Below are positions 6,486 through 20,921 of a stretch of DNA of 64,000 nt, in pieces. The notes below the pieces were generated by a model. That model saw only the letters and a program-made list of their open reading frames with translations, was not told the DNA's origin and did no database searches. The stretch is from Phycisphaerae bacterium (lineage in GTDB: Bacteria > Planctomycetota > Phycisphaerae > Phycisphaerales > SM1A02): NCBI GenBank assembly GCA_002722935.1, contig PBMX01000010.1, positions 2,169 to 66,168 on the forward strand. The letters are read 5' to 3'. The translations under genes and the position numbers were made by a program. Within the stretch, counting starts at the first letter, position 1. Every line of letters starts with the position of its first letter.

Positions 6486-7574
6486 ATGAACGCCCAAGAC
6501 ATCCTGAAGAACACGTGCCTGCTTGCAGGACTGGTTTCAATCGCCTTGATTTCTCCCACCATGGCCGACGAGGAGGAGCCATTCGACCCGACCTCCCCTG
6601 AGCAGGTCGCCGAACGTGAAGAAGAGAAGGAGGGGGGCAAGGAACCCGAGGAAGGTTTTCTCTCCGGCCCGACGGTCGATCCCTCGAACACCGTGGGTGA
6701 GCGAAACGGCGGCATGTCCGGTGGAAATCGGCAGGGGGGGATGCAGCAGATGGATGTCTTCAGCATCTTCAGCGCCAAGTGCCAGAAGTGCCATGGTCCC
6801 GATTCACAGAAGGGCGGCGTCCAGGTGATGCCCCTCGAGATGGTCTTCAGCGGCTCGGAGAAGCACTGGGTCGTCAAGAAGGGTGATCCGGACAACAGTG
6901 AACTGATCAAGCGGATCAAGTTGGACGCGGGGCATGACGACATCATGCCGCCGGAGGGTGGCCCGCTGTCCGACGCGGAAATCGAGGTCATCGTGGAATG
7001 GGTCAGGTCCGGTGCACCCACCGACGTGCGCCCTTCGCAGGCAAGACAGGCGCGCATCCAGCCTCGACAGTGGGCTCAGGCCTACATGCAACTTGAACTG
7101 GATCAGGAACAGCGAACCGAGGCTGAAACCCTGATGAAGACATACCAGGATCTCAACGGCGAGTTCGACCGTGAGCACCGGGCCCGCATTCGCGAGTTGC
7201 AGCAGAAGATCCGTGAAACCCGTAATACGAATGACACTATTTCAAATGCAGCCAACAAGATGGAACTTGAGCGTCTCCAGGAGGAGCGCCCGAAGTTTGA
7301 ATCCGTCCAGGAGACGCTTTGGAACCTGTTGTCACCCGAGCAGCAGGAACAGATGCGCCTGGCCCTCGAGTCAATGGCATCACGCGGCCAGCAGGGCATG
7401 AACTCCGAACGCCGTCGAGGTCGGAGGCCGGGTGGTCGAAACAGCGGGGGGGAGGAGCTCAGCGAGGAAGAGCGTGAGCGCATCCGTGAACGCATGAAGC
7501 GACGCCGAAATGGTCAGGGATCTCCGCCTCGATCGCCCGAACCCGGCCGGGATGGTGATCCCGGGGAAGATTGA
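6486..7574 (+). CDS. secreted Planctomycete-cytochrome-c (PSCyt1-like) domain protein with charged coiled-coil / LTXXQ-like C-terminal half
   Basis: Signal peptide MNAQDILKNTCLLAGLVSIALISPTMA. Haem-binding-type CQKCHGPDSQKGG followed by DIMPPEGGPL. The C-terminal half is Glu/Arg/Gln-rich (LSPEQQEQMRLAL). Confidence 0.6.
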   Translation: MNAQDILKNTCLLAGLVSIALISPTMADEEEPFDPTSPEQVAEREEEKEGGKEPEEGFLSGPTVDPSNTVGERNGGMSGGNRQGGMQQMDVFSIFSAKCQKCHGPDSQKGGVQVMPLEMVFSGSEKHWVVKKGDPDNSELIKRIKLDAGHDDIMPPEGGPLSDAEIEVIVEWVRSGAPTDVRPSQARQARIQPRQWAQAYMQLELDQEQRTEAETLMKTYQDLNGEFDREHRARIRELQQKIRETRNTNDTISNAANKMELERLQEERPKFESVQETLWNLLSPEQQEQMRLALESMASRGQQGMNSERRRGRRPGGRNSGGEELSEEERERIRERMKRRRNGQGSPPRSPEPGRDGDPGED

Positions 7575-8461
7575 GCAGGAGTTCCCGGCTCCAGGTGAGA
7601 GGCGAGGGCATGGAGTTTCGCGAACGCATCGGCGTGCAGTCGATCAAGTGACGCCCAGTCCTCCTCGTTGCTCCAGATGTACGGATCCCAGAGAGCGATG
7701 CCGTCGGCACGGTGGATGGTTCCATCGGGCGCCGTCCACGTCGCTTGGAGTACTGCGTTTGCATTGGCAAGAAGTTCATCGATGGGCATGAACTTCGTCC
7801 GGTCTCCATCCTGTCCGCAGTAACGCATGCTCAGGTAGACGATGACAGGCTTCCTTCCACGGACCGCTTCAAGAACACGCTGGATGTGGAGTTTGAAATC
7901 GCTGCTGTTCTCCCCGGGCGTGCAGTCATAGGCCGACGGATAGAGCACGCCGCTTCGCGCGATGAGGGGTTCGATCGACAGGCCCTGTTCCTTCCATCCC
8001 TTCGAGACGTTGCGCATGGTCGGCAGGCCCCAGTAGCCCCACTGCAGACCCGGCCTCGCTTCCTGGGCCTCGGCGAGGGCGTCGATGTAGACGGCCATGA
8101 TTTCCTGGAGGCGCTCCGGGTCGAGTTCCCTTGCATTGAGTTCGATCCACCAGGGCTGTTCGTAGTCCATCATGGCCGGCCCGGTGGCATTCAGTGGAAG
8201 GGTTGCATCGACCCACTTCCTGAACTGTCGTCGATCGGTCTCCGTGATCGTTCCATCCTGGTTCCAGTCGACGCCACCGTGGTAGGCGGCGGGAATGGTC
8301 GGGATCCCGAGCCGTTCAATCGTCTTTTTCGTGGCTTCTCCCTGGCCATCGGCCGAGTACTTGATGGCGTCATAGACCATCGGCTTGGATACCACGGGTA
8401 CCGGCACAGGCACTGGTGCCCACGAAAGGATCGGCAGGAGGAAGGGGATCAGGAGCCTCAT
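7514..8461 (-). CDS. secreted GH56-like (hyaluronidase-family) TIM-barrel glycosidase candidate with EF-hand-like loop
   Basis: Signal peptide MRLLIPFLLPILSWAP. Collinear motifs MMDYEQPWW, RPGLQWGYWGLP, GVLYPSAYD, PVIVYLSMRY and ADGIALWD resemble GH56 motifs recalled from bee-venom and human hyaluronidases. Also carries a DWNQDGTITETD Ca-loop-like motif. Confidence 0.55.
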   Translation of the reverse strand: MRLLIPFLLPILSWAPVPVPVPVVSKPMVYDAIKYSADGQGEATKKTIERLGIPTIPAAYHGGVDWNQDGTITETDRRQFRKWVDATLPLNATGPAMMDYEQPWWIELNARELDPERLQEIMAVYIDALAEAQEARPGLQWGYWGLPTMRNVSKGWKEQGLSIEPLIARSGVLYPSAYDCTPGENSSDFKLHIQRVLEAVRGRKPVIVYLSMRYCGQDGDRTKFMPIDELLANANAVLQATWTAPDGTIHRADGIALWDPYIWSNEEDWASLDRLHADAFAKLHALASHLEPGTPAQSSPGSPSRPGSGDRGGDP

Positions 8462-8607
8462 GAGTGCCTATCCTACGCTTGGAAATGACGAGGGCCGAGA
8501 TTGGCTTGAAGTCACCCCCCGGGGATCACCGAAAATCAGGGTGAGCAGGGGCCCAGGACACACCTGCAACCGGGCAGGAGACGCCGGGGAGGGCACGCGG
8601 AGCATCC

Positions 8608-9990
8608 ATGGATCGAATCCAGATCTATCTCGACATCGTTCCGTTGCCGGTTGCGGTGGCCGGGGCGTTCTTCGCGGTCTTCGCCTTCTTCGCCATCCCG
8701 AGCCGGTACAGGCTTTCTGTCGCCCTGACCATCATGCCCATCTGGCTGACCATGTCCCGCCTGCCCGAGTTCGAGATCCAGTGGCTTCCGCCCGCCGCGA
8801 AGATCACGAGCATCATGGGCTATTCGTTCGTCGGCCTGGGAGCCATGTTGCACCCGGGGCCGAGGCGAACCCTTCCGCGGTACGTGTGGCTCTACCTCGT
8901 CATGGCGGTGATCGCCTTCCTGTTCGTGCTCAGGGTCGATGATCGAACGGTCGCATTGATTCTTCGACTGCAATGGCTGACGCTGGTCTTCGCGGCCCTC
9001 ATGCTCGCCCGCACGATCGTCACGACCCAGGACCTGATGCGCATCGTCAATGCACTCGCCTTCGGCTGTTTCCTGGCCTTGGCGCTGCCCCTGTCTGCAC
9101 TGATTCTCTTCCCCGGCGAATCCTTCCTGAAGGGTGGCAACAGGTTCGAGCCCTACGGTGTGAACTCGAACCAGATCGGGATGCTCTTCGCGCTGGCGTT
9201 GCCGTTGCTCGCGTACAAGGGTTTGACCGCCCGCAGGGTCGTCTTCAAGCCGATCCTTCTTGGAGCCGCCGGCATCACCGTTGGAATGGCGTTGCTCACA
9301 GGTTCACGACAGACGCTGCTCGCGATCCTCATGGTTTCAATACCACTGGTCTTCAAGTTCTCGAAGAGACCGGTGATCACGATCGTTGGACTGGCGATCG
9401 GCGCATTCGCAGTCTCGTACGTCATGGGCATGGCGGATGCGACGGCGGTGGAACGACTGAGCGATCTTGAATCGGAACGAATCTACATCTGGGAAGCGTA
9501 TATCCGGGATGTCTTCGCCCAGCGGCCCCTGTTCGGGCTCCTGGGAGTGAGTGGTGAGGAAGCATTCAAGAGCAGCGTCGTCGGCATGCATCCGCACAGC
9601 GCGTATTTCAACATGATGTACATGGGTGGACTCGTCTACACGGTGCCGATGCTCTGGCTCCTGTGGAAGTCGGTCAAGTCGACGAAAACAGTCTGGCAGG
9701 CACGTACGATGCTCGGCACGGATCCACTGCTCATCTCGATCCTGGCCACGCTGCTCCTGGCGATGTACGTACAGGGACTCTTCAACCAGGTGGTCTACTG
9801 GCCCACCTATGCATGGTCCTTCCTGCACGTCATCCTCGCGAGTTTCTTCATGTCGGTGGCGCACGACCTGGAGGTCGAGGACCCGGCCTGGGTCCTGCCC
9901 GATGAAGAGGCGGAATACGATCCCGGCGACTGGTACGACGAGGACGAGGAGGTCGACCCCGGGATGCTGCCGGAAGGTCAACTGGCCTGA
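8608..9990 (+). CDS. O-antigen ligase / Wzy-like polytopic membrane protein
   Basis: 460 aa with at least 10 hydrophobic spans. The LLTGSRQTLLAILMV region is typical of the Wzy_C / O-antigen ligase family. Acidic C-terminal tail. Confidence 0.65.
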   Translation: MDRIQIYLDIVPLPVAVAGAFFAVFAFFAIPSRYRLSVALTIMPIWLTMSRLPEFEIQWLPPAAKITSIMGYSFVGLGAMLHPGPRRTLPRYVWLYLVMAVIAFLFVLRVDDRTVALILRLQWLTLVFAALMLARTIVTTQDLMRIVNALAFGCFLALALPLSALILFPGESFLKGGNRFEPYGVNSNQIGMLFALALPLLAYKGLTARRVVFKPILLGAAGITVGMALLTGSRQTLLAILMVSIPLVFKFSKRPVITIVGLAIGAFAVSYVMGMADATAVERLSDLESERIYIWEAYIRDVFAQRPLFGLLGVSGEEAFKSSVVGMHPHSAYFNMMYMGGLVYTVPMLWLLWKSVKSTKTVWQARTMLGTDPLLISILATLLLAMYVQGLFNQVVYWPTYAWSFLHVILASFFMSVAHDLEVEDPAWVLPDEEAEYDPGDWYDEDEEVDPGMLPEGQLA

Positions 9991-11672
9991 GTGTCCCGCC
10001 TCAGCCATTGCCCCAGGAGCCTGAGTGCACGACGTCGCTCTGGCGCTTCCAGGCCGAAGAGCAATCCGAGGATGCCGTAGGCCGCTGCAAACATGACAGA
10101 GGCTGCCAGCAGGAGAGGCCACTCTCCTTCCCCGGGCGGGAAGTCGATCGCCAGGTAGACCAGCGAGGCGACGATTGAAATCACCAGCGGCCTGCCCAGT
10201 AGACCCAGGAGTCGCGACCAGGTGGTACCGAATCTCGGCGCCGCGATCGCAGGCAGCAGCAGGAGGTGAACCACGAGGAAGGCGAGACTGAATCCCCACG
10301 CCGGGCCGGTCCAGTTCTCGATCCAGATGATCTGTCCCGAGTCGGCCTCGTTCGAGGCGGGGAAGTTGTAGATGAACAGGAAGGCCATCAGCGGGTTGGC
10401 GATCCCGCCGGCGAGGATGAGCGGCGCATATCGCTTGATGTGTCCGGCCCCGTAGAGAAGTTTCATCCAGCCATCGGCGATCGCCCGGCTCATGAGACCG
10501 ATGACCATGATTCGAACGAGCACGACCGTGTGCTGCAGGAAGTCCGCATCTTCGTTCTGCAGTTCACTGCCGACCCAGGTCTGGAGAATCGGTTCGGCGA
10601 GAATGAAGATCGTAAGTGCGCAGGGTATGGCGACGTACCCATGCAACCGCGTCGAATGCCTGGCGATCGAACGAAGCGTGTCGTCCATCTTCGTCGAGGC
10701 GATCCGTGCACTGACCGCATCGAGACCGAACGTCATGCCCAGGGTGCACATCCGGACGTAGCTGACCAGCCTCAGGGCGAGTCCGAACATGGCGCTGCCC
10801 TGGAGACCGAAAACCCCGAGCATGATCCAGGCGCCGATCCGTTCATGCAGGTTCATGGCCGTGACGACGGTGCTGTTCCAGCCGAAGGTTCCGAGTACTT
10901 CCCGGAATGCGCCGACATCCGCCATTCGGAGCTTCGGCCGCAGCCTTGCATCAAGCAGCATGATCCGGCTGACGGCGAAGAGGAGCAGGCAGAGCGACAT
11001 GCCTGCGGCGCAGACGCCGTAGAGCTTCAGGCTCAGTTCGACCTGGTCCGTTCCGAGGACGATGAACAGGACGACCGCCGAGACCAGGTAGGTCAGCCGT
11101 TTCAACGTGAAGTAGAGATTGCTCTCGAAGAAACGCTCGGTGACGATGTACATGTTGTAGGCGGGGGTCAGCAGCACCAGCATGGTGATGGACACGCCTT
11201 CGCATGCAAGGATCCAGAGACCCCCGGTCCGGAAGGCCGGTGGAATCTCGTGGAACGGCCAGATTCCATGCTTCAGCAGGGAGAAGAAGGCGAAGAACAC
11301 GCCAGCCGTCAAGACGGCGACCAGGGCGCAGAGAATGAATGACGAGGCATACACGCGCCTGAAATGAGCAATGTCGTTCTCGGTCGCATCGTCCGCCTCT
11401 GCTGCGTGCCAGACGACGCCCAGTTCGCGGATCATGCTCTGGCGCATGACGTCCTGGAGCATGGCGGCAAGTCCCACGGATGCGCCGATGGCGACAAGGA
11501 GGCCGAATCCCTCCGGCCCGACCCACATGAACTGCACCTTCACCAGGACCAGGCCGATCAGCAGGGTCGACCCGAGGCGACCGTAGTTGCTGGCTATTCG
11601 CTTGATCCCACGGCGGGCTTCGGACATCGAGGTGTGTTCCGGTATTGCTGCTGGTTGCGGTACCTGGCTCAC
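9978..11672 (-). CDS. polysaccharide flippase-like (MOP/Wzx-type) membrane protein
   Basis: 564-aa polytopic protein with length and topology like the polysaccharide biosynthesis (Polysacc_synt) family. Converges on the Wzy-like gene with a 13-nt overlap. Alternative start at M16 (11627). Confidence 0.55.
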   Translation of the reverse strand: MSQVPQPAAIPEHTSMSEARRGIKRIASNYGRLGSTLLIGLVLVKVQFMWVGPEGFGLLVAIGASVGLAAMLQDVMRQSMIRELGVVWHAAEADDATENDIAHFRRVYASSFILCALVAVLTAGVFFAFFSLLKHGIWPFHEIPPAFRTGGLWILACEGVSITMLVLLTPAYNMYIVTERFFESNLYFTLKRLTYLVSAVVLFIVLGTDQVELSLKLYGVCAAGMSLCLLLFAVSRIMLLDARLRPKLRMADVGAFREVLGTFGWNSTVVTAMNLHERIGAWIMLGVFGLQGSAMFGLALRLVSYVRMCTLGMTFGLDAVSARIASTKMDDTLRSIARHSTRLHGYVAIPCALTIFILAEPILQTWVGSELQNEDADFLQHTVVLVRIMVIGLMSRAIADGWMKLLYGAGHIKRYAPLILAGGIANPLMAFLFIYNFPASNEADSGQIIWIENWTGPAWGFSLAFLVVHLLLLPAIAAPRFGTTWSRLLGLLGRPLVISIVASLVYLAIDFPPGEGEWPLLLAASVMFAAAYGILGLLFGLEAPERRRALRLLGQWLRRDTQAS

Positions 11673-11806
11673 ATCCTAGGCACAGAACCGCCCTTGGAGT
11701 ACACCTGGGGGACCTGTGCATCCTGGAGGACCCCATTTTTCCGAATATCGGCTTTGCGTCCATGGTGCCGGGGGTACGGTATTCCAGGAGGGATTCGGGG
11801 CGAAAC

Positions 11807-13150
11807 ATGGATCGAAAGCCACGAAATGGGTATCGATTGGTGCCGCTGGCCGTCGTGTTGGCGAGTGCTCTGTCCTTGCAGGCCCATGGAGGAGAGGGAT
11901 TGGCGTTCGAGGATCATGTCCAGTACCTCACGGGTGGAGAGAACTCCACCGGCGTGGCAGCCGCCGACATCGATGGTGATGGTGACATCGACCTCTTCTT
12001 CTCGAATCGCTGGACGCATGACGTCACGACCCTGCTGAATGACGGGCAGGGATTCTTTGTCGCGGGTCAGGCCGTTGGGGTAGGGGTGACACCCCGCTAC
12101 GTGCGGGCCGCGGATTTCAACGGGGACGATGCTCCCGATTGCACGACGCCCGACTATGACGGTTCGAGCGTCAGCATCGTGCTCAATGACGGTTCAGGAA
12201 TATTGCAATTCCACCAGAGCGTCGATGTATATCGACCCGCCGTGCTCGACATCGTCGACTTCGACTCCGACGGCGACAACGATGTGCTCGTCGCTCACTG
12301 GGACGAGGACTCGAGCCAGCCCAGCCAGGCGCTGGCGATGATGTCCGTGCTGTTCAATGACGGATCGGGCAACTTCACCGCCGGTGAACCGGCGACGATC
12401 GGTATCCAGCCCCGTGGAATGGATGTCACCGACTTCAACAATGACGGGTTGCCCGATGCCATCGTCTGCAACCTCGCATCCAACGACATGGACCTCCTGA
12501 TCAATGCCGGTGATGCCACCTTTCTCCCGACCATGATTCTCGATGCACCCCACCAGCCCAGGTACGTCACGGCAGGGGACTGGAACGACGACGGAGCGGA
12601 GGACATCGCCGTCGTGAGCAAGAGCACCGCGATCATCGAGTTCCAGCGGCACGACGGTGCACTCGGGTTCACGACGACCCAGTCGCTGGCGACGATGAGC
12701 AATCCCCACTCCTGTACGAACGTCGACCTGGACCTCGATGGCGATCTCGATGTCCTCGTATCACACGTGGGATCATTCAACGTCTCCATCTACCTCAATG
12801 ACGGGCAGGGCACCTTCGCTCCGCGGTGGAACCTGTATTCACCCAACGGGCCCGCCGAGGTCATCACGGCCGACCTCGATGGGGATGGCCTGCCCGACAT
12901 CGTCACGGCCAACACGAACAATCACACCTGCTCGGTGCATCTCAACGCATTGGACTACGAGGCGCCCTCGTGCCAGGCCGACCTCGATGGCAACGGGGCG
13001 GTCGATGTCCTCGACCTCCTGCTTGTCATCCAGAACTGGATGTCCTGCGAAGGGGGTACATGCCCACCCGGGGACATCAACGAAAGCGGGCAGATCGACA
13101 TCATCGATCTTCTGTACCTGCTCGAGGCATGGGGGGAGTGTCCTGTTTAA
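11807..13150 (+). CDS. secreted FG-GAP/VCBS-repeat (beta-propeller) protein with C-terminal dockerin-like double EF-hand
   Basis: Signal peptide MDRKPRNGYRLVPLAVVLASALSLQAHG. Repeated D-x-D/N-x-DG-x-x-D plus hydrophobic strand units. C-terminus DLDGNGAVDVLDLLLVIQNW...DINESGQIDIIDLLYLLEAWGEC. Confidence 0.75.
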   Translation: MDRKPRNGYRLVPLAVVLASALSLQAHGGEGLAFEDHVQYLTGGENSTGVAAADIDGDGDIDLFFSNRWTHDVTTLLNDGQGFFVAGQAVGVGVTPRYVRAADFNGDDAPDCTTPDYDGSSVSIVLNDGSGILQFHQSVDVYRPAVLDIVDFDSDGDNDVLVAHWDEDSSQPSQALAMMSVLFNDGSGNFTAGEPATIGIQPRGMDVTDFNNDGLPDAIVCNLASNDMDLLINAGDATFLPTMILDAPHQPRYVTAGDWNDDGAEDIAVVSKSTAIIEFQRHDGALGFTTTQSLATMSNPHSCTNVDLDLDGDLDVLVSHVGSFNVSIYLNDGQGTFAPRWNLYSPNGPAEVITADLDGDGLPDIVTANTNNHTCSVHLNALDYEAPSCQADLDGNGAVDVLDLLLVIQNWMSCEGGTCPPGDINESGQIDIIDLLYLLEAWGECPV

Positions 13151-14513
13151 TCGACTTCCAATCCTGGTGGTCCTCGTGCTCCCGGGCGTTCAGCTCGAGG
13201 CGGGCACCTGTGAACACATCGGGTTCGAGGCCCCGGCCAACTATCAGGTCGAGACCGAGGGCGATGACCTCACGTTCATCCGATGCGTCGAAACGGGCGA
13301 TCTCGATTCCGACGGAGATGTGGATGTCATCGCAAGTGACCGGTACGGGGAGGAAATCGTGATCCTGCTCAATGACGGCGAGGGGAACCTCGAGGAGTGG
13401 GGCTCCGTCTTCTCGGATGGATGTGAACGCAACAGGATCGTCATCCTGGAGGACCTCGATGGCGACGGGCTGCTCGATATCGCCTCCGCCTCCTATGCTG
13501 GAGCTGCCGTGTTCCTCAACGCCGGTTTCGATGGAGACTGGCTCGGGTTTGAACCCGTGGCGGTCTATCCATCCGGCTTCAGTCCACACTGGATCGATGC
13601 CGCCGATCTCGATCTTGATGGCGATCTCGATCTGCTCATCGCCGATTTCGGTGAAACCGACATGGAAACCGGCTGGCATGCCTTTCTCAACAACGGCGAC
13701 GGCACGTTCGCGACCGGCATCGAAACGATTCTGGGATACAACGCACGCTGCATTTCCATCAATGGAACCGATCTTGATGGCGACGGGTACCCGGAGATCA
13801 TGATCGCCGGTGCACGGCTCAACGGCGGGTTCATCCATGTATTCGACAACGCCGGCATCGACTCGAACGGCGACTGGCTTGGTTCGGACTATTCAGTGAG
13901 CATTCCGGTCACCTACGGAGCGTGCTCGATTCGCGCATTCGATCGAGAACACGACGGGGACATGGATCTCGTGGTCGCGCACAGGAGCCAGCCGGAACTG
14001 TCCTTCCTTGTGAATGACGGCTCAGGTGGCCTTGTCCTCGAGACGATGGTCGTCCAGACGAGCATCGAATTGGCGCAGCCCGTCGAGATTGATGGCGACG
14101 GCGTCACGGACATCGCGCTCGTCGTGAAGAACACGGGGCAGATGCGGCTCCTGATCAATGACGGGAGCGGCCAATTCGTGGACAGGGGGTCCACCGGTGG
14201 CGGTGTCGATCCGAAGTTCGCCGCCTTCGCCGACCTCGATTCGGATGGCGACATGGACGGCGTCATGGCCAACTCGTATCCCGGCCAGGATTACGGCTCG
14301 GTTTCGGTCCACCTGAACAACTCGGCCGTACTCGAATCCGGGTGTGAACTCGACCTGAACTGCGATGACCTCGTGAGTACTGGCGATCTCCTGATCGTCC
14401 TGGCCGACTGGGGTCCGAACCCGGACCTGCCGGGAAATGTCAATGGCGACGGCCATGTCAATGTCAACGACCTGCTCATCATCATCGGCGCATGGGGACC
14501 ATGCGACCCCTGA
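13143..14513 (+). CDS. secreted FG-GAP/VCBS-repeat protein paralogue with dockerin-like C-terminus (start unresolved)
   Basis: Same repeat architecture as the upstream gene. C-terminus GDLLIVLADWGPNPDLPGNVNGDGHVNVNDLLIIIGAWGPC. A signal-like FNRLPILVVLVLPGVQLEA follows a CTG at 13143. The nearest in-frame ATG is 13005, inside the upstream gene; a GTG lies at 13167. Confidence 0.7.
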   Translation: MFNRLPILVVLVLPGVQLEAGTCEHIGFEAPANYQVETEGDDLTFIRCVETGDLDSDGDVDVIASDRYGEEIVILLNDGEGNLEEWGSVFSDGCERNRIVILEDLDGDGLLDIASASYAGAAVFLNAGFDGDWLGFEPVAVYPSGFSPHWIDAADLDLDGDLDLLIADFGETDMETGWHAFLNNGDGTFATGIETILGYNARCISINGTDLDGDGYPEIMIAGARLNGGFIHVFDNAGIDSNGDWLGSDYSVSIPVTYGACSIRAFDREHDGDMDLVVAHRSQPELSFLVNDGSGGLVLETMVVQTSIELAQPVEIDGDGVTDIALVVKNTGQMRLLINDGSGQFVDRGSTGGGVDPKFAAFADLDSDGDMDGVMANSYPGQDYGSVSVHLNNSAVLESGCELDLNCDDLVSTGDLLIVLADWGPNPDLPGNVNGDGHVNVNDLLIIIGAWGPCDP

Positions 14514-14587
14514 CGGGTGCGTGCTGGACGGATGAACGCTCCCGAACCGATGAGTTCAGCACCCGAAGCCCGTGAGTCGACCACCCC

Positions 14588-15409
14588 ATGACGGATGATC
14601 CACGCCGACACCCACTGACGTTCCTGGTGCTTGGATGCCAGCGATGCGGCACGACCTGGCTGGATGCCGCGCTTCGTGAACATCCCCAGATCTATCTTCC
14701 TTCGCAGAAGCAGACCTATTTCTTCGATCGCCACCAGGATCGTGGAATCGACTGGTACCTTTCGCAGTTCGATGGCGTCGAAGAGGGACATGCGGCCGTC
14801 GGAGAAGTGGCCACTGGATACTGCCTGCCCGAGGTGGTTGCGGATGTCGCCGACGTATTCGGTGACGTCGACGTCCTGCTCATCGTTCGCAATCCGATCG
14901 ATCGTGTCTACAGCAACTACCAGGTTCGACGACAGGAACAGGGGTGGGGCTCGTTCGAGGAGGCCATCAAGTCCGATCCGGATCTCCTCGCTCGGAGCAG
15001 CTATGCCGACCAGCTTGAGGTCATCCTCGCCCACTGGCCTTCCGACCGTGTTCACGTCCTCTTCCAGGATGATCTCGAGCAGGACGATCGAGCCTTCCTT
15101 GCCCAGGCCCTCCGGATTCTCGGCGTGGACGAGTCGTTCGAGTCCAGCCAGTTCGGACAGGTGAGGAACTCGGCGATGTTCCCGCGAATCAGGGGAACGG
15201 CCCAGTCACTCGGCCTCCGTTCCATCCTCGGCATGCTCAGCCGGAGTCCGCTTGGAAACGCGGTCCGACGCATGCGCAAGAAGCGGTCGGGACGAGGCTA
15301 CCATTCGATGAATCCACGGACCCGAGAGGAACTCGTCGCCTACTTCAGGCCGTTGAACGAACGTCTCGCTGCCCAGACAGGTCGTGACCTGTCACATTGG
15401 AACCGATGA
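14588..15409 (+). CDS. PAPS-dependent sulfotransferase family protein
   Basis: 5'-phosphosulfate-binding-type motif LVLGCQRCGTTWL and 3'-phosphate-binding-type motif VRNPIDRVYSNY. 273 aa. Confidence 0.8.
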   Translation: MTDDPRRHPLTFLVLGCQRCGTTWLDAALREHPQIYLPSQKQTYFFDRHQDRGIDWYLSQFDGVEEGHAAVGEVATGYCLPEVVADVADVFGDVDVLLIVRNPIDRVYSNYQVRRQEQGWGSFEEAIKSDPDLLARSSYADQLEVILAHWPSDRVHVLFQDDLEQDDRAFLAQALRILGVDESFESSQFGQVRNSAMFPRIRGTAQSLGLRSILGMLSRSPLGNAVRRMRKKRSGRGYHSMNPRTREELVAYFRPLNERLAAQTGRDLSHWNR

Positions 15410-15416
15410 GGAACAC

Positions 15417-16586
15417 GTGCGAATCGGAAACTACATCTCTGTGGTGGCTGGAGAACTCGGGTACGAGCACAACGTGTCCGGGCACATCCAGGTTCCATTG
15501 GAAGGCATGAGGCGACTGAAGGAGGCAGGGCACGATGTGCACCTCGTCACGAACGAGTTCGGCGAGGATCGATCATTGCCTGCCTGCCTCGATGAAACCA
15601 TTCCGGTCCACCTGGTGAGCGATGCACGGAACCGGGGAGGCATTCTCACCCGGGACTCCGACCAGGGACGGGGCGTGAAACTCGCGGCGCTGCGTCGACA
15701 GGTCCGCCAATTGAAGGGGATCTGCCTGGAGCACGGCTTCGACGTGCTCCACCTTCACGGGTACAACCGGACAGCGCACCTGGGTGGGGGACTGAGGCTG
15801 ATGGGACTTCCCTGCCCGGTCGTCTGTACCGTCTTCGGCGGAATCTTCCCTGAACGATGCGGTCTCCTGACACGAAGACTCTGGAACAGGGTCGATGCCC
15901 TGGTGACCGCGACCCGGTTCGTGAAGCAGGAGTACGAGGCCCAGGGATTGAACGTCAGCCAGGTTCGACATGGACTCATCCGGGACCTCCGGAGTGAATA
16001 TGAAGGCACCCCGGAATCCTCGAGACGACGTGTTCTCTTCTGGCGGGACCCATCGACCGAGAACGGGGCCGATCTCGCTCTCGAGGCCTATCGTGCGCTC
16101 GCTCCACGCTACCCCGACATCGACTTCGATTTCGCGATACGTCCCTACTGGGATCCCATAGACGGAATCGACGAACTGGCGGTGGAACACGACAACGTGC
16201 ATGTCTACCGGTTTCCCTATTCCGATGGCATCACCCTTCCCGGTCTTGTCGTGAACTCCCTCTGCGTCCTCCAGCCGATGAGACAGTTGACGATCAATCC
16301 GCAACTCGTCATCGCCGAGAGCCTGGCCGCGGGCGTCGCCACCATCTCTTCCGATCTCGGATCCACCGGGGAACTGGTGCAGGACGGTGTCACCGGTCGA
16401 CTGGTGCCGGTCGGGGACGGCAAGGCATTGACCGATGCCCTCGACGGCCTCCTGGCCGATCCGGCTGCGCTTGAAGCGATGGGACACGCAGCCAGCGAGG
16501 ACATGGCCGCCCGGTGGAACTGGGAGCACTTCATCAATGACGTCATGTCCATCTACAATCGTGTCATTCCCGGGAGCGCTGCATGA
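15417..16586 (+). CDS. glycosyltransferase family 4 (GT-B, Glycos_transf_1)
   Basis: EX7E-type region IAESLAAGVATISSDLGSTGELVQDGVTGRLV. Start placed at the GTG (VRIGNY...) 8 nt after the sulfotransferase stop; the ORF track opens at 15384. Confidence 0.8.
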   Translation: MRIGNYISVVAGELGYEHNVSGHIQVPLEGMRRLKEAGHDVHLVTNEFGEDRSLPACLDETIPVHLVSDARNRGGILTRDSDQGRGVKLAALRRQVRQLKGICLEHGFDVLHLHGYNRTAHLGGGLRLMGLPCPVVCTVFGGIFPERCGLLTRRLWNRVDALVTATRFVKQEYEAQGLNVSQVRHGLIRDLRSEYEGTPESSRRRVLFWRDPSTENGADLALEAYRALAPRYPDIDFDFAIRPYWDPIDGIDELAVEHDNVHVYRFPYSDGITLPGLVVNSLCVLQPMRQLTINPQLVIAESLAAGVATISSDLGSTGELVQDGVTGRLVPVGDGKALTDALDGLLADPAALEAMGHAASEDMAARWNWEHFINDVMSIYNRVIPGSAA

Positions 16587-17725
16587 AGGTTCTTCACTGG
16601 TATCGATCGATGGATCTGGAGATGGGGGGCGTGGTCCGCGCCGTCCTGGACATCTCCGGGGCCATGGCCGACCGGGGGCATGAACAGGTCATCGCCACGT
16701 TCGAACAGGCTGAACTGGAATCGATGTGGACTTCGCACGGCGCCAACCGGTCCGTCCTCCAGTTGACTTCATCGGGCCATCGCCGTCGACCGCTCGCCGG
16801 CGAGTCCCTTCAACGCATCGAGGCCGAGATCGGGAACTGCGATGCCGTGCACCTGCATGGCGTGTGGGACCCGGCCTGTTACCAGTTGGCGGGCATCGCC
16901 GAACGTGCGGGCGTTCCATATCTGGTGAGTCCGCATGGTGTCCTCGACGACTGGTGCATGAAACAGAAGTCCTTCAAGAAACGGCTGTACCTCGCCATGG
17001 GCTGCCGTCGCATGCTCAACAAGGCGAAGGCTGTTCACTGCACCGCCGAGGGAGAACGTCAGCAGGCGACGCGCTGGTTCAACCCCGACCGCGCACGCGT
17101 CGTGCCCCTTGTCTTCGACCTTGATGAATACCTCGTCCTTCCCGGTCCCGAGGAAGCCCACGATGCCTTCCCGTCGCTCTTCGAAGGTCCCCCGGTTCTG
17201 CTCTTTCTGAGCAGGATTCATGTGAAGAAGGGGCTCGAACATCTCGTCGCTGCAGCGGCCGAACTTCATGCACGCGGTGAATCCGTCCGTGTCGCGATTG
17301 CCGGGACAGGTGACCTCGACTACGTGGAACGGCTCAAGGAGCAGGTCGCATCGTGCGGCATGGAGGAAGTCGTCCACTTCATCGGGTTCGTCTCGGGGAC
17401 CAGGAAGGTGTCCCTCTACCAGGCGTCCGACCTCTTCGTCCTGCCGACGCACCAGGAGAACTGGGGGTTCGTGCTCCTCGAGTCCCTGGCATGCCAGACG
17501 GGACTGGTAACGACCAAAAGCGTGGACATCTGGCCGGAACTGGAAGCCTCGGGGGGTGCCGTCATCGTCGAACGTTCGGCGAAGTCGCTGGCGGATGCCA
17601 TCCAGCCGCTCCTCGCGAAGCCTTCGCGGCTCGAGACGATGGGGAAGCGTGGACGCGAATGGGTCCTGGAGGAACAGGATGCCGACCGGGTCGCGGAACT
17701 CTACGTCCAGTTGTACTCGGATTGA
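16583..17725 (+). CDS. glycosyltransferase family 4
   Basis: MKVLHWYRSMDLEMGGVVRAV N-terminus, plus PTHQENWGFVLLESLACQTGLVTT (EX7E region). 4-nt overlap with the upstream GT gene. Confidence 0.8.
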   Translation: MKVLHWYRSMDLEMGGVVRAVLDISGAMADRGHEQVIATFEQAELESMWTSHGANRSVLQLTSSGHRRRPLAGESLQRIEAEIGNCDAVHLHGVWDPACYQLAGIAERAGVPYLVSPHGVLDDWCMKQKSFKKRLYLAMGCRRMLNKAKAVHCTAEGERQQATRWFNPDRARVVPLVFDLDEYLVLPGPEEAHDAFPSLFEGPPVLLFLSRIHVKKGLEHLVAAAAELHARGESVRVAIAGTGDLDYVERLKEQVASCGMEEVVHFIGFVSGTRKVSLYQASDLFVLPTHQENWGFVLLESLACQTGLVTTKSVDIWPELEASGGAVIVERSAKSLADAIQPLLAKPSRLETMGKRGREWVLEEQDADRVAELYVQLYSD

Positions 17726-17732
17726 ATCCGTG

Positions 17733-18887
17733 TCACTCGAGGCCCAGCGCCGTGTCGAGACGTGCGGCAATCGCGGGCCAGGTGTAGTGTTCGCGCACGA
17801 GTGCGGCGCCCGCGGACCCCATCCGACTTCGGGCATCCGTTGAGGAAACCACTTCATGCATGGCCTGGCCGACCGCTTCCGGGTCGAGCGGAGTCACCAG
17901 GCCTGCGCCTGCCTCGGCGACCTCGGGAAAGTGACATGCCTCGGTGATCACGACCGGTGTTCCGCAGCCCAGCGCCTCGGTGATCGCCATCGAGAATCCC
18001 TCCTGGCGACTGGGAAGGCAGAAGCAGTCGCAGTCGACGAGCGCGGCGAGCTTGTCGGTTCCGTACACCGGACCGATGCAATGGATGTTGCTGCGTGCTG
18101 AACTCGCCTCGATGATCGTATGCAGCGTCGATTCGTACCCGTCATCAGGTCCGGCGATCACGAGACGCAGTTCCGGTACGCGTGCATGGACCTGCTCGAA
18201 GGCCGAGACGAGAATGTCGAGGCCCTTCTTGTAGTGGAGCCTGCTGAGGAACAGCACGAATGGTTCGTCGTCGAGTTCCCGTCGGCTCTCCCGGAACGTG
18301 CCCCGTTCGGGAAGGGGTTCGATTTCCTCGAGGAAGATCCCGTTGGGGATCACCTCGATAGTCGCCGCTCCGACATGCGGTTTCATGCCAGCCTCCTCGT
18401 CGCGATTGAGGGCGTGGATGAAACGCGACCCCTCGAGCATGTTCTGGCCGCGGAAGGCCAGTGCGAGGCGCTTGCGCAGGCGTCCCTGGTCCATGCACCA
18501 CGGATCGAGCATTCCGTGGGGGGTGATGATCCAGTCGGTGCCGGTGCGACGCGCTTCGCGCGCGGCGTTGTGCAGGATCGGATCCCATACACCGTGGAGG
18601 TGCACCAGTTCGTATGCTTCGACGTGCTCGCGAAGCCACGTCCTCGCCTGCCTGGCTCTGACTCGTTCAATGGGACCACCTGGTTCCAGGAGGTGTACGT
18701 TTAGCAGCCCGTTTCCGGGGAGCGATGTGATCATCGAGTCGATTCGTTCCCTCGCGGAGGTTTCGGCATGCGCGAGCACATCGACATCATGTCCGCGCAT
18801 TTCCTGTGCGGCCCCGAGTCGCGTTACGACAACGGGAGGGCCGCCTTCAGCCGGGTCGAGGGAAGAGATGACGTGGAGAATGTGCAT
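17733..18887 (-). CDS. glycosyltransferase family 4
   Basis: MHILHVISSLDPAEGGPPVVV N-terminus, plus PSRQEGFSMAITEALGCGTPVVITE. Confidence 0.8.
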   Translation of the reverse strand: MHILHVISSLDPAEGGPPVVVTRLGAAQEMRGHDVDVLAHAETSARERIDSMITSLPGNGLLNVHLLEPGGPIERVRARQARTWLREHVEAYELVHLHGVWDPILHNAAREARRTGTDWIITPHGMLDPWCMDQGRLRKRLALAFRGQNMLEGSRFIHALNRDEEAGMKPHVGAATIEVIPNGIFLEEIEPLPERGTFRESRRELDDEPFVLFLSRLHYKKGLDILVSAFEQVHARVPELRLVIAGPDDGYESTLHTIIEASSARSNIHCIGPVYGTDKLAALVDCDCFCLPSRQEGFSMAITEALGCGTPVVITEACHFPEVAEAGAGLVTPLDPEAVGQAMHEVVSSTDARSRMGSAGAALVREHYTWPAIAARLDTALGLE

Positions 18888-19007
18888 TCAAGTGGCTTCA
18901 AGGTCGGTACAGGCGTAAACAGGTTGCCCTTGGGAGTCTAGGTCACTACCATCGGCTGTTTCCCGGTGTATTCATTCCAAACCAGCCCCAGCAGGAGCCC
19001 TGCCGCG

Positions 19008-20201
19008 ATGCCCTCACATGATCTGATTGCCCCGAACGGTGGAACACTGGTCGACAGGTTCGTTACCGGTGATGAAGCAGCCAAGCTCAAGGACGCTGCC
19101 GATTCGATGCCGTCCATCACATTGACCTTCAAGCAGGCCTGCGACCTGGAGATGATCGCCATTGGAGCGTTCAGTCCCTTGACGGGATTCGTCGGTCCAG
19201 AGGATTTCAAGTCCATCTGCACGACGATGCGAACCGCGGACGGTACGCCGTGGCCCATTCCGATCACGCTTGCGGTCGATGCCGAAACCAAGGATTCCCT
19301 CGCGGTCGGCGGCCAGGCGGCCCTCTACCACGCCGATGGCACCTTGATGGCGGTCATCGACGTCGAGTCGATCTACGAGCACGACAAGGCCCTTGAACTT
19401 CCCAATGTGTTCCGGACCGATGACCCCGCCCACCCGGGTGTCCAGGCCGTCCTCGAGGAAGGCGACTGGCTGGTCGGCGGACCAATCCATGTCCTGACCG
19501 TGACGCCCGAGCATGAGCCGGGAGAGCAGTTCACCGATCATCGCCTGGTACCGGCGGCGACTCGTGCGGCCTTCAGTGAGCGTGGCTGGAAGACCGTCGC
19601 GGCCTTCCAGACCAGGAACCCCATTCACCGCGCGCACGAGTACCTATGCAAGTGTGCTCAGGAGATCTGTGACGGACTGCTGATCCATCCGCTCGTTGGT
19701 GAAACCAAGCCCGGAGACATTCCGGCCGATGTCCGCATGCAGTGCTACGAGACCATCATCGACCACTACTTCGTCGATGACAGGACGATGTTGACGGTGA
19801 TGCCGGCCGCCATGCGCTACGCCGGCCCGCGTGAAGCCGTCCTGCATGCACTCGTTCGACAGAACTACGGCGTGACCCACTTCATCGTCGGTCGCGATCA
19901 TGCCGGCGTGGGCGACTACTACGGCACCTACGATGCCCAGAACATCTTCGACGAGTTCGAACTCGGCGAAATCGGCGTGACGCCCCTGAAGTTCGAGCAC
20001 GCCGCCTGGAGCAACAAGGCTCAGGGCATGGTCAGCAGCAAGACCTTCCCGAAGATCGAGGGTGACCAGATCTTCCTGAGCGGCACGAAGGTCCGCGAAC
20101 TGCTTGACAAGGGCGAGCGTCCACCGGCCGAGTTCTCTCGACCGGAGGTGGCGGATGTACTCATCGAATGGGCGACCGCCGAGTCGACTGCGGCGGTCTG
20201 A
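19008..20201 (+). CDS. sat: sulfate adenylyltransferase (ATP sulfurylase, Sat type)
   Basis: [14 protein letters not shown] and [16 protein letters not shown] motifs. Start placed at [15 protein letters not shown]; the ORF opens at a GTG at 18966. Confidence 0.9.
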
Positions 20202-20238
20202 TCGAATCACGTTTCAACGAAGCAGGAGCACGAGAGAC

Positions 20239-20859
20239 ATGGCTGAACAGGTAGCGACAAACATCACCTGGCATGACGGAACGGTCACGAGGGACGAGCG
20301 CAAGGCCGTTCTCAAGCAGAAGGGCTGCACCGTCTGGTTCACGGGACTTTCCGGTAGCGGCAAGAGCACGATCGCAGTTGCGCTCGAGCAGGTGCTGTTC
20401 CAGCGAGGGCACGTCGCCTATCGACTTGATGGCGACAACGTCCGCATGGGTCTCAACAAGAACCTTGGCTTCTCGGCCGAGGATCGAGCCGAGAACATCA
20501 GGAGAATCGGCGAGGTCTGCAAGCTCTTTGCCGATTCCTGTGTCATCACCCTCTCGAGTTTCATCAGTCCCTATCGCGAAGATCGCGACCAGGCACGCTC
20601 GCTTCACGCCGATGGAGACATCGATTTCATCGAGTGCTACGTCGAGTGTCCGCTCGAGGTCGCCGAGGAGCGTGACCCCAAGGGCCTCTACAAGAAGGCT
20701 CGTGCAGGCGAGATCAAGGGATTCACGGGCATCGACGATCCATACGAGGAGCCCGAGTCCGCGGAACTCGTGATCAATACGGCTGAATGTTCACTCGAGG
20801 AGTCCGTCCAGGCCGTCCTCGACTGCCTCGAAGCCAGGGGCCTCCTGAAGGCCGACTGA
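20239..20859 (+). CDS. cysC: adenylyl-sulfate (APS) kinase
   Basis: [19 protein letters not shown]-loop, [19 protein letters not shown]. Start at [12 protein letters not shown]. Confidence 0.92.
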
Positions 20860-20885: not shown

Positions 20886-20921
20886 AGGTGCCCACGTCCA
20901 GGCGTGGGCACCTTCTTTTTT
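20886..20921 (+). terminator. intrinsic terminator after cysC
   Basis: Perfect 11-bp stem AGGTGCCCACG / CGTGGGCACCT with a 6-nt loop, followed by TCTTTTTTC. Confidence 0.8.

Follow-up and report, generated by a model that had tools for sequence, protein, structure and literature searches.

The synechan locus xss of Synechocystis PCC 6803 is a Wzx/Wzy cluster with sulfotransferases (PMC8205485). The wps-1 cluster of Actinoplanes missouriensis (PMC13390465, 2026) combines Wzx and Wzy with a heparan-sulfate (HS)-type sulfotransferase and a glycoside hydrolase; it is adjoined by a sulfate adenylyltransferase/APS kinase gene, the deletion of which severely impairs sporangium formation, as in the cluster mutants (PMC13390465). 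A putative sulfated-GAG cluster, with a sulfotransferase among GT2/GT4 genes, is carried by Pontiella sulfatireligans F21, which makes a sulfated GAG-like exopolymer (PMC7356697). The initial annotation of the locus studied here held that it was not a described cluster type; this goes too far, because both xss (PMC8205485) and wps-1 (PMC13390465) are comparable.

In the window, by which we mean the whole stretch of 64,000 nucleotides analysed, from an uncultured marine planctomycete of the class Phycisphaerae, the region from 7.5 to 20.9 kb encodes a GH56-like hydrolase, a Wzy_C-family protein, a MOP flippase, two FG-GAP propellers, a sulfotransferase, three GT4 glycosyltransferases (GT4a, GT4b and GT4c), Sat and CysC, and closes with a terminator. 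Every component listed by the initial annotation was found at or near the place given for it, but the picture of the strands needs correction: the genes for the flippase and for the third GT4 actually lie on the minus strand, and therefore there are at least four transcription units. Similarly, sat-cysC had been said to follow directly. The two genes are indeed nearby, but the minus-strand GT4c gene, which converges on GT4b and diverges from sat, parts them from the sulfotransferase operon and leaves them with their own 120-bp upstream region. About 45 further ORFs across the window, scanned with Pfam, proved to be housekeeping genes only, and the earlier claim that the window contains no cysH, sulfite reductase (sir) or cysDN was borne out.

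From the directly observed family assignments, conserved catalytic and PAPS-binding residues, and gene order with its conservation, we consider it probable that this block, conserved in the lineage, is a module for an extracytoplasmic sulfated glycan that depends on a flippase and is fed with PAPS from the block itself. Besides the collinear housekeeping flanks and the distant loci described below, further points count against this reading: the Wzy-like and MOP proteins of the window score below the Pfam cut-offs, and neither the window nor any related locus contains a priming phosphoglycosyl transferase (WecA/WbaP type), a co-polymerase or an outer-membrane exporter.

The predicted PAPS-dependent sulfotransferase of the heparan-sulfate (carbohydrate) type (273 aa; 14588..15409, plus strand) was identified by Pfam and a PDB profile search. 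The earlier sulfotransferase call is upheld, with Sulfotransfer_3 at 50.8 bits (cut-off 27) and Sulfotransfer_1 at 48.2 bits (cut-off 22). The two PAPS-type motifs quoted at the time occupy residues 16-25 (GCQRCGTTWL) and 100-111 (VRNPIDRVYSNY), and both are kept across 20 homologues. The best relative in the PDB is the bacterial sulfotransferase 3rnl (6e-36), followed by HS 3-O-sulfotransferases and the NDST sulfotransferase domain (1e-14 to 3e-17), and no structure of a tyrosylprotein sulfotransferase (TPST) is among the PDB matches. R19, E73, R101 and S109 align with the catalytic and PAPS-binding residues of 3-OST-1, such that the 5'-PSB Arg, the catalytic-base Glu and the 3'-PB Arg/Ser match those of the HS 3-OST/NDST enzymes. 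Judged by its sequence, the enzyme looks carbohydrate-directed. It has neither a transmembrane segment nor a signal peptide, and therefore probably acts in the cytoplasm. The nearest homologue outside the planctomycetes (42% identity) is alphaproteobacterial and is flanked on one side by an acetyltransferase and on the other by a Polysacc_synt_3 flippase (9e-68), followed by a DUF5935+Wzy_C protein (5e-22), with GT2 genes flanking the group. This predicted Wzx and Wzy_C neighbourhood lends independent support, from another phylum, to a flippase-dependent sulfated glycan.

The PAPS supply would come from Sat, a homo-oligomeric ATP sulfurylase with PUA_2 and ATP-sulfurylase domains (19008..20201, plus strand), and CysC, the APS kinase that makes PAPS (20240..20859, plus strand). 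Both were assigned by Pfam and NCBIfam: Sat matches ATP-sulfurylase at 2e-91 as well as PUA_2, and the NCBIfam sulfate adenylyltransferase model at 513.9 bits (cut-off 387), while CysC matches APS_kinase at 6e-72 and the NCBIfam model at 279 bits (cut-off 163). In all likelihood sat truly starts at ATG 19008 and cysC at ATG 20240, both preceded by AGGAG. The strong intrinsic terminator proposed earlier 3' of cysC was recovered at 20886..20913 (plus strand) as the best-ranked candidate of a scan; its 12-bp stem, in which 8 pairs are G-C, bears a loop of 4 nt and precedes TCTTTTTT.

The unity of the block proposed by the initial annotation extends to relatives, as about 22 marine Phycisphaerae MAGs share the collinear order GH56-like, Wzy_C, MOP, FG-GAP, sulfotransferase, GT4a, sat, cysC. 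Across these, identity drops to 47% for the sulfotransferase and about 60% for the release factor. The invariant core is the sulfotransferase with GT4a: the two genes are adjacent, at most 100 bp apart, in 33 of the 35 loci holding GT4a, usually together with FG-GAP genes. In at least 13 relatives sat lies directly after GT4a on the same strand.

Could Sat-CysC instead provide general sulfate activation for assimilation, with a PAPS reductase elsewhere, the glycan genes adjoining through clade-wide collinearity and the sulfotransferase drawing on a common PAPS pool? The housekeeping genes mrp and release factor, which flank the block, are equally collinear, and therefore much of the synteny could be backbone conservation and not selection for linkage. 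Furthermore, the sat-cysC pair of the window is served by a separate upstream region and a separate terminator, and nine more distant Phycisphaerales loci hold the sulfotransferase-GT4a pair with no sat-cysC, Wzy_C or GH56-like gene within 10 kb; MOP is absent too from eight of the nine, while L033 retains a MOP homologue 5.9 kb off. On the other hand, the sulfotransferase or GT4a still has sat-cysC as its neighbour in three independently rearranged loci (L022/L089, L032 and L071), in L089 even with both flanks changed. None of cysH, cysI, cysJ, cysD and cysN lies beside sat-cysC within the flanks examined at the 22 loci, or anywhere in the 1.45 Mb of the window and related loci, and an Rfam scan of 7000-23000, which includes the region upstream of sat, found no riboswitch. 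We regard a purely general role as unlikely; the reading of the initial annotation, PAPS for the glycan rather than for sulfur assimilation, is tentative, and we infer that Sat-CysC may serve mainly sulfation. Dual use, for both assimilation and sulfation, would not contradict the sulfated-glycan reading.

The Wzy_C-family polytopic membrane protein of the O-antigen ligase/polymerase type (460 aa; 8608..9990, plus strand) has about nine hydrophobic segments, and the MOP-superfamily (Wzx-like) flippase (9978..11672, minus strand) has 12. The latter probably starts at ATG 11627 (549 aa); its gene and the Wzy-like gene converge and overlap by 13 nt. Both calls were made because of orthologues and a structure model, not the Pfam scores of the window proteins themselves. 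The window's own Wzy-like protein has no Pfam match, but 17 of its 24 orthologues match Wzy_C (best 4e-10); in its GMHPHSAYFN motif H330 is invariant and H328 nearly so. For its AlphaFold (AF2) model (pLDDT 86.7) the only significant fold match in the PDB is the O-antigen ligase WaaL (7tpg, 5.6e-4). The window MOP protein reaches 20.7 bits for MatE, under the cut-off of 24.9; its orthologues match MatE in 27 of 28 cases and Polysacc_synt_3 in 20 of 28 (best 9e-10). The earlier label "Wzx/Wzy-type" is thus sustained through orthologues as far as Wzx-like and Wzy_C are concerned, but not for a complete system, given the missing priming transferase, co-polymerase and exporter and a sole fold match that is a ligase. 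Since the Wzy_C fold is common to both, the protein may be either a polymerase or a ligase.

Upstream and divergent from the Wzy-like gene lies a gene for a putative secreted GH56-like glycoside hydrolase (315 aa; 7514..8461, minus strand), which is co-conserved with the block and present in 22/34 loci (those with enough upstream flank). The protein has a hydrophobic N-terminal signal. Its family profile matches GH56 hyaluronidases in the PDB (1.4e-4), and the top four folds for its AF2 model (pLDDT 85) are all GH56 (4e-9, TM about 0.55). The window protein scores 16 bits, under the Pfam cut-off of 23.2 bits; distant family members exceed the Glyco_hydro_56 cut-off, and D99-x-E101 of the window protein aligns with their DWE motif. 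The top match of the window protein is the TIM-barrel fold of the GH56 hyaluronidases (human HYAL1 and Hyal of bee venom), with which it has in common the D-x-E of catalysis, the tyrosine of PSxY and the motif WGY[YW]xxP. It differs from them in its bacterial origin, an identity of 16-19% and a deletion of about 28 residues past the catalytic strand.

The first FG-GAP gene (11807..13150) opens the plus-strand operon with a ribosome-binding site and encodes a secreted seven-bladed propeller (FG-GAP_3 x7, 3e-43) with a signal-peptide-like N-terminus and a C-terminal dockerin (Dockerin_1, 5e-10). The second (13167..14513, plus strand; FG-GAP_3 x5, 3e-33) has a dockerin-like C-terminus seen by eye only. 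Its start is uncertain (GTG 13167 or 13176; 445 aa in metagenome contig calls), and reading of the start region revealed no obvious start codon yielding a signal peptide. The description of both as secreted therefore fits the first protein but not clearly the second. Genes of this type recur beside the sulfotransferase-GT4a pair across the order, even in distant Phycisphaerales, in one to five copies. This recurrence would suit protein O-glycosylation, in which the Wzy_C protein, as a PglL/WaaL-type ligase, puts a short sulfated oligosaccharide on secreted proteins, most plausibly the propellers. The same is true of the sole structural match to WaaL, the lack of a co-polymerase or exporter and a weak match (1e-3) of the window Wzy-like protein to TIGR03097, the exosortase-associated "O-glycosylation ligase" model. 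However, the Wzy_C fold does not tell ligases from polymerases, the propeller sequences as read have no Ser/Thr/Ala-rich acceptor linkers, and a polymer suits a GH56-type endo-hydrolase better than a short protein-linked glycan does, which makes this explanation quite improbable.

Among the glycosyltransferases, GT4a (15417..16586, plus strand; both the N- and the C-domain of GT4 in Pfam) forms the invariant pair with the sulfotransferase, and its stop overlaps the start of GT4b (16583..17725, plus strand; Glycos_transf_1, 3e-32). GT4b is an accessory, HpsP-like enzyme (NCBIfam HpsP 7e-50, below cut-off) that varies among relatives, being missing or inverted in many. For the accessory GT4c (17733..18887, minus strand; Glycos_transf_1, 4e-32), only L005, the closest relative, has an unmistakable orthologue (75% identity); in other loci it gives only 23-34% matches, which overlap GT4a or GT4b-like genes. 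The least probable alternative, namely that the sulfotransferase and GT4a make a sulfated glycolipid, e.g. a sulfated glycosyl-diacylglycerol (a phosphorus-free anionic membrane lipid), next to a separate pathway of Wzy_C, MOP and GH56-like proteins, would account for the invariance of this pair alone, the single glycosyltransferase in the block of many relatives, the absent priming transferase, the best PDB matches of GT4a (PimA and BshA, with lipid or small acceptors, over the C-terminal donor-binding region only) and the action of the known bacterial carbohydrate sulfotransferases NodH and Stf0 on glycolipids (PMC11625862), but is opposed by the direct adjacency of the alphaproteobacterial homologue to Wzx and Wzy_C genes, the operon shared with secreted FG-GAP/dockerin proteins and the polysaccharide chains used by the HS-type relatives.

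In the sulfated-glycan pathway that we favour, a short oligosaccharide would be assembled on the cytoplasmic side of the membrane, attached to a lipid carrier, always with GT4a and with GT4b and GT4c as lineage-variable extras; the identities of carrier, acceptor and sugars are inferred. The soluble, signal-less sulfotransferase may then O-sulfate one sugar of the lipid-linked intermediate with PAPS from the adjoining genes (sulfate to APS by Sat, APS to PAPS by CysC), whereupon the MOP protein would flip the sulfated unit across the membrane. The Wzy_C-family protein might either polymerise this unit or ligate it en bloc to the acceptor. Trimming or remodelling of the product by the secreted GH56-like enzyme would imply a beta-linked N-acetylhexosamine in the glycan. 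The co-transcribed, secreted Ca-binding FG-GAP/dockerin propellers may be extracytoplasmic partners, as glycan binders or carriers.

How does this compare with known systems? Synechan xss, a Wzx/Wzy-type cluster as the window block putatively is, combines GT4/GT2 enzymes with sulfotransferases of the cytoplasm. Its XssA is distantly homologous to the window sulfotransferase (26% identity over 175 aa, 9e-17) and GT4c resembles XssG (25% identity, 4e-15), while BLASTP found no similarity of the window Wzy-like and MOP proteins to XssF and XssH. Unlike the window, xss has its own priming transferase, co-polymerase and regulator set; it lacks the PAPS genes, glycoside hydrolase and FG-GAP proteins, and belongs to a different phylum. 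The wps-1 cluster, likened here by gene description, follows the same overall logic, with sulfation putative in both. It differs in its Gram-positive actinomycete host, a GH26 instead of a GH56-like hydrolase, the presence of Wzz, the absence of FG-GAP/dockerin genes and a PAPS enzyme described as a single sulfate adenylyltransferase/APS kinase family gene in place of sat and cysC. Pontiella sulfatireligans F21 is likewise marine and of the PVC superphylum; by description its cluster is similar, but PAPS, GH56-like and FG-GAP genes, all found in the window, are not reported for it (PMC7356697).

An ATP sulfurylase and APS kinase encoded beside the sulfotransferase that they feed are also seen in NodPQ-NodH of Sinorhizobium and RaxPQ-RaxST of Xanthomonas, and the R-x-G 5'-PSB motif of NodH (PMC11625862) resembles R19-C-G of the window enzyme. 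However, NodPQ and RaxPQ have a CysDN-type (GTPase-coupled) sulfurylase, not one of the Sat type. They duplicate housekeeping copies, and the sulfate is passed to a lipo-chitooligosaccharide in the one system and to a peptide in the other. The animal HS 3-O-sulfotransferases and NDST domain belong to the same fold family as the window sulfotransferase (about 20-25% identity), with aligned 5'-PSB (K/R-x-G-T), catalytic Glu (VEKTPAYF vs VGEVATGY) and 3'-PB (R...S), but they reside in the Golgi lumen and modify completed chains, whereas the window enzyme is predicted to be cytoplasmic, and its substrate is presumably a lipid-linked intermediate. Comparable blocks are known from cyanobacteria and an actinomycete, and that of the marine Phycisphaerae is a further variant.

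The block, which runs from the GH56-like gene to cysC, is a real and conserved feature, and we consider it reasonably probable that it makes a sulfated surface glycan that is fed by PAPS and depends on a flippase. With gene starts adjusted by direct inspection of the DNA, the ORF listing, Pfam and NCBIfam recovered every component named in the initial annotation; the strand of two genes had to be corrected, and both membrane proteins match their families weakly by their own sequences. The secreted GH56-like protein (7514-8461, minus strand) is followed by a Wzy_C-family membrane protein (Wzy-like, 8608-9990, plus), a MOP flippase (9978-11672, minus, likely start at 11627), a protein with seven FG-GAP units and a dockerin (FG-GAP1, 11807-13150, plus) and one with five FG-GAP units (FG-GAP2, about 13170-14513, plus). 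The sulfotransferase SULT (14588-15409, plus), the glycosyltransferases GT4a (15417-16586, plus), GT4b (16583-17725, plus) and GT4c (17733-18887, minus), the ATP sulfurylase Sat (19008-20201, plus) and the APS kinase CysC (20240-20859, plus) complete it. An intrinsic terminator after cysC (20886-20913, plus; 12-bp stem, 8 G-C pairs, T-run) ranked first in the terminator scan.

These genes form at least four transcription units rather than a single operon. The tight same-strand run extends from FG-GAP1 through GT4b, with a gap of 7 nt between SULT and GT4a and an overlap of 4 nt between GT4a and GT4b, and sat-cysC has a separate 120-bp upstream region. The Wzy-like and MOP genes are convergent, their 3′ ends overlapping by 13 nt (9978-9990). 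For FG-GAP2, no ATG, GTG or TTG start that yields a full signal peptide is present at 13140-13180; in frame there are just two GTG codons, at 13167 and 13176, both within the hydrophobic stretch, 17-26 nt past the FG-GAP1 stop, and a conserved AGTCE follows this stretch both in the window and in the related locus L089. Neither a riboswitch nor any other RNA element turned up in an Rfam scan of 7000-23000.

Outside the block, the 64-kb window holds housekeeping genes: menaquinone, mrp, release factor, DUF1501/PSD1, UDG, Dtd, M32 peptidase, AnmK, an NAD-epimerase (37.2 kb), purD, uvrB, gcvH, cmk, plsC and putA. The uvrB gene (48461-50551, minus) apparently lies in two ORFs, an N-terminal one of 559 aa (48872-50551) with helicase and UvrB_inter domains and a C-terminal one of 130 aa (48461-48853) with UvrB and UVR domains, which could mean that the gene is truly split or that a frameshift or a sequencing error divides it. 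A class-V aminotransferase (NifS/IscS-like, 39248-41218, plus) carries a 257-aa N-terminal extension without a Pfam match, and the sole domain of an 859-aa protein (2704-5283, plus) is a C-terminal Rce1-like CAAX-protease. The host, a planctomycete of the class Phycisphaerae, is marine and uncultured. Its GH56-like and Wzy-like proteins match CMJ36_01645 and CMJ36_01650 at 100% identity, and an identical copy of SULT is present on Tara Oceans metagenome contigs.

Profile searches bear out the sulfotransferase call. SULT exceeds the curated cut-offs of both Pfam Sulfotransfer_3 (50.8 bits, cut-off 27) and Sulfotransfer_1 (48.2 bits, cut-off 22). In the PDB, a profile of 20 homologues matches the bacterial sulfotransferase 3rnl best (6e-36), followed only by the heparan sulfate (HS) 3-O-sulfotransferases 1, 3 and 5 and the NDST1 sulfotransferase domain (3e-17 to 3e-14), while cytosolic SULTs are far weaker matches. 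Both PAPS-binding motifs are present: in the 5′-phosphosulfate loop GCQRCGTTW, R19 is invariant and aligned to the Lys of KGGT in 3-OST-1, and in the 3′-phosphate-binding motif RNPIDRVYS, R101 and S109 are invariant and aligned to the 3-OST-1 motif. The equally invariant E73 aligns to the Glu of VEKTPAYF in 3-OST-1 (Glu90); this Glu is the catalytic base in HS sulfotransferases. Profile, motifs and catalytic Glu thus mark SULT as a predicted PAPS-dependent carbohydrate sulfotransferase of the HS 3-OST/NDST-like type. Neither a signal peptide nor a TM segment was found in SULT, which should therefore be cytoplasmic, where PAPS is made. An R-x-G variant of the 5′-PSB loop also distinguishes NodH (PMC11625862). 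A distant homologue of SULT (29% identity) is encoded on S. meliloti pSymB, within a stretch that is unannotated in the plasmid table. A literature search on Phycisphaerae sulfotransferases returned nothing.

Is the PAPS made here for this enzyme? A scan of the genome collection with the SULT profile gave 80 loci, against which all window proteins were run by tblastn. SULT homologues at 45% identity or more occur in 42 loci, nearly all of them Phycisphaerae or Planctomycetota MAGs, and in about 22 the block is syntenic, in the order mrp, [PSCyt], GH56-like, Wzy_C, MOP, FG-GAP (0-2), SULT, GT4a, [0-2 extra GT4], sat, cysC, pilin-like and release factor. Identities across these collinear loci are 47-82% for SULT and 60-90% for the release factor. 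Every collinear-type locus with enough downstream sequence contains sat-cysC, and sat directly follows GT4a on the same strand in at least 13. The collinearity extends to mrp and the release factor, so that synteny alone could be conservation of the backbone, and three rearranged loci are more telling for the linkage of sat-cysC than collinearity. In L022/L089, cysC and sat (both minus) lie directly upstream of SULT (plus), with FG-GAP and GT4a near and entirely different flanks; in L032 an inversion leaves GT4a-sat-cysC together; and in L071 GT4a and SULT (both plus) are divergent from sat-cysC. The linkage of sat and cysC to SULT is thus conserved in 22 loci, the three rearranged ones among them. 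A prepilin-type (N_methyl) protein of 361 aa (20938-22023, minus) lies directly downstream of cysC and converges on its terminator, a position kept in all collinear relatives (33-91% identity); its gene is absent from the rearranged L089, so it probably belongs to the backbone and not to the system.

The strongest rival explanation holds that Sat-CysC is mainly assimilatory and that its PAPS is shared, which would be compatible with a sulfated surface glycan. Pfam scans of the window ORFs found no cysH, sulfite reductase or cysDN, in agreement with the initial annotation. In 1.45 Mb of sequence (window plus loci), E. coli CysH, CysI, CysJ, CysD and CysN gave no tblastn match, while CysC matched in 22 loci; sat-cysC was thus not found beside cysH/sir in these related loci. 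With the linkage surviving rearrangement, we regard a mainly assimilatory role as unlikely, and treat dedicated, non-assimilatory PAPS synthesis as a candidate reading.

Wzx/Wzy-type is a candidate designation for the pathway, and a polymer is only one of two readings of the Wzy_C protein. The window Wzy-like and MOP proteins both fall under the Pfam cut-offs (MatE 20.7 bits vs 24.9 for MOP), while their orthologues are recognized as MatE in 27 of 28 and Polysacc_synt_3 in 20 of 28 cases for MOP, and as Wzy_C in 17 of 24 for the Wzy-like protein. Neither family profile matched PDB sequences. When the Wzy-like protein was modelled with AlphaFold (alignment of 50 sequences, pLDDT 86.7, pTM 0.86), a single significant PDB neighbour emerged, the O-antigen ligase WaaL (E 5.6e-4, TM 0.49/0.55), all other fold matches having E >0.1, and the fold assignment is therefore right. 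With hhalign, the profile of the Wzy-like family gave no signal against WaaL, WcaD, WzyE and WbbH of E. coli; the bona fide Wzy_C protein of the alphaproteobacterial locus L047, used as positive control, gave none either, so hhalign against single-sequence templates is uninformative. The modelled fold does not discriminate between polymerase and ligase. Pfam scans found no priming phosphoglycosyl transferase, and neither the window nor any Phycisphaerae locus contains a WecA/WcaJ homologue; such an enzyme could be encoded elsewhere in the genome. No Wzz/Wzc co-polymerase or Wza exporter was seen among the Pfam-scanned window ORFs, and WzzE had no match in the related loci.

If the Wzy_C protein is a ligase, a sub-case is protein O-glycosylation with the propellers as acceptors. 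The propellers do accompany SULT and GT4a closely: the "unknown" 424-439-aa neighbours in L085, L088 and L089, three of the more distant or rearranged loci, are all FG-GAP-type propellers with signal peptides, in one to five copies. What persists is therefore a trio of propeller(s), SULT and GT4a. We rate protein O-glycosylation as rather improbable.

A further alternative, less probable again, is that SULT-GT4a produces a sulfated glycolipid. In nine more distant Phycisphaerales loci SULT-GT4a is kept, often with further GT4 genes, and sat-cysC, Wzy_C and GH56-like are all absent within 10 kb; MOP is missing in 8 of the 9, the exception (L033) retaining a homologue 5.9 kb upstream of SULT. 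GT4a lies within 100 bp of SULT in 33 of 35 loci. Its profile matches the PDB only in the generic C-terminal donor-binding region, so an acceptor is not indicated. Another phylum lends independent support to the flippase-dependent reading: a flippase and a Wzy_C protein reappear beside the closest non-planctomycete SULT homologue (42% identity), on the alphaproteobacterial chromosome L047. Here the homologue has an Acetyltransf_6 gene on one side and on the other a Polysacc_synt_3 flippase (9e-68), which is followed by a DUF5935+Wzy_C protein (5e-22), with GT2 genes flanking the group. By tblastn these neighbours have no homology to those in the window, and the pairing of sulfotransferase with flippase/Wzy_C therefore arose or persisted separately. 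Protein tyrosine sulfation as the main role of SULT was rejected, the PDB matches being HS enzymes with TPST structures absent.

The extra GT4s number zero to two per locus, the kind of variation that a diversifying surface glycan should show. GT4b and GT4c best match the hormogonium-polysaccharide glycosyltransferase HpsP, under its cut-off. Cyanobacterial SULT homologues (L056, L060, L062 and L077; about 9150-10900; 29-31% identity) lie directly downstream of a GT4c-like GT4, which suggests that an old GT4-sulfotransferase pairing is shared with cyanobacterial EPS loci. A second sulfotransferase occurs in the more distant Phycisphaerales loci L088 and L058; that of L088 (18374-19225, minus) is located about 7.5 kb downstream of SULT-GT4a among methyltransferase, Hexapep and GT4 genes. 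Contig JANQNW010000016 has two SULT homologues roughly 80 kb apart, the second at 33% identity. Genomes with a second sulfotransferase may make more heavily modified glycans.

The GH56-like gene, which the initial annotation had listed as a separate finding, belongs to the block. The window protein reaches 16 bits against Pfam Glyco_hydro_56, under the cut-off of 23.2, while several distant members of about 310-340 aa exceed it (28-39 bits). An exhaustive profile search with the family gave 331 cluster representatives at 50% identity, and the profile matches venom hyaluronidases by sequence (1.4e-4). The top four Foldseek matches of the model (pLDDT 85) are all GH56 structures (4e-9 to 1.5e-8; the next is at 9e-6). 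In a joint alignment, D99-x-E101 falls on the DWE catalytic motif of the GH56-positive relatives, WGYWGLP on G[FY]YG[LI]P and LYPSAY on FPSVY, and D99, E101, Y178, R213 and W258 are invariant. Model and alignment together thus provide the TIM-barrel, the catalytic D-x-E and the acetamido-positioning Tyr/Trp residues of GH56. The locus exposes a bacterial branch of this otherwise animal-centred family. GH56 enzymes are substrate-assisted endo-beta-N-acetylhexosaminidases; given this chemistry, co-conservation with the block hints that the product may contain HexNAc. NCBI already calls one Phycisphaerales member "hyaluronidase", and the planctomycete paper that mentions GH56 reports it as absent. 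In the closest relative, MAG bin61s (84% identity), the orthologue (L005:4121-4960, minus) has an in-frame stop codon, which could mark a pseudogene or stem from misassembly.

From the family assignments, conserved residues and gene linkage established here we propose the following route to a PAPS-fed, flippase-dependent sulfated surface glycan, for which we infer carrier, acceptor, sugars and product size. At the inner membrane face, GT4a, with or without GT4b and GT4c, would build up a short lipid-linked oligosaccharide, and SULT would sulfate it with PAPS from Sat and CysC. The MOP protein would flip the sulfated oligosaccharide and the Wzy_C protein polymerise or ligate it, while the GH56-like enzyme and the FG-GAP/dockerin propellers would act outside the cytoplasm. 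A more specific and tentative version, to which we give little weight, is a sulfated, HexNAc-containing GAG-like polymer made by the flippase/Wzy_C route and remodelled by a functional bacterial GH56. In many relatives, its repeat could be no larger than a disaccharide of a priming HexNAc and the GT4a sugar, which would be sulfated in the cytoplasm. If this is true, the GH56-like protein would be the first functional bacterial GH56-type endo-hexosaminidase, Ca-binding FG-GAP/dockerin propellers would arrange the polymer at the cell surface, and a bacterial route to sulfated GAG-like matter would be defined genetically.

Sulfated polysaccharides are usually viewed as algal or animal products that are degraded by marine bacteria, including planctomycetes. 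With a conserved sulfation module, widespread uncultured marine Phycisphaerae would not only consume sulfated organic matter but also produce it, with consequences for the stickiness of particles, the binding of metals and the marine pool of sulfur esters. Sulfated GAG-like matter has been found chemically in marine isolates (Pontiella cultures) and granular sludge, without known genes. The compact, testable set of a sulfotransferase, one conserved GT4 and Sat-CysC helps to ask which bacterial genes make such polymers.

The overall interpretation of the initial annotation is largely sensible; its suggestion that the cluster type is undescribed overreaches, because precedents exist in synechan (PMC8205485) and wps-1 (PMC13390465). 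Synechan was described as the first Wzx/Wzy cluster with sulfotransferases, sulfated EPS being stated as otherwise unknown outside cyanobacteria (PMC8205485); SULT is a distant homologue of its XssA (26% identity, 9e-17). The wps-1 cluster of Actinoplanes missouriensis, described in a 2026 paper, combines Wzx/Wzy/Wzz, two sulfotransferases (one HS-type) and a GH26, and is adjoined by a sulfate adenylyltransferase/APS kinase gene (PMC13390465), the same design logic as in the window. For the PVC bacterium Pontiella, a sulfated GAG-like exopolymer and a putative cluster are reported, with the remark that no prokaryotic GAG sulfotransferase is known (PMC7356697). Classical examples in which PAPS genes adjoin a sulfotransferase gene are NodPQ-NodH and RaxPQ-RaxST (PMC11625862, PMC4216712), and the window likewise has conserved ATP sulfurylase and APS kinase genes next to SULT. 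Compared with these systems, the locus lacks priming, co-polymerase and export genes and is distinguished by its planctomycete lineage, a very small conserved GT set, Sat and CysC as separate genes instead of CysDN or a fusion, the GH56-like hydrolase and the obligatory FG-GAP/dockerin partners.
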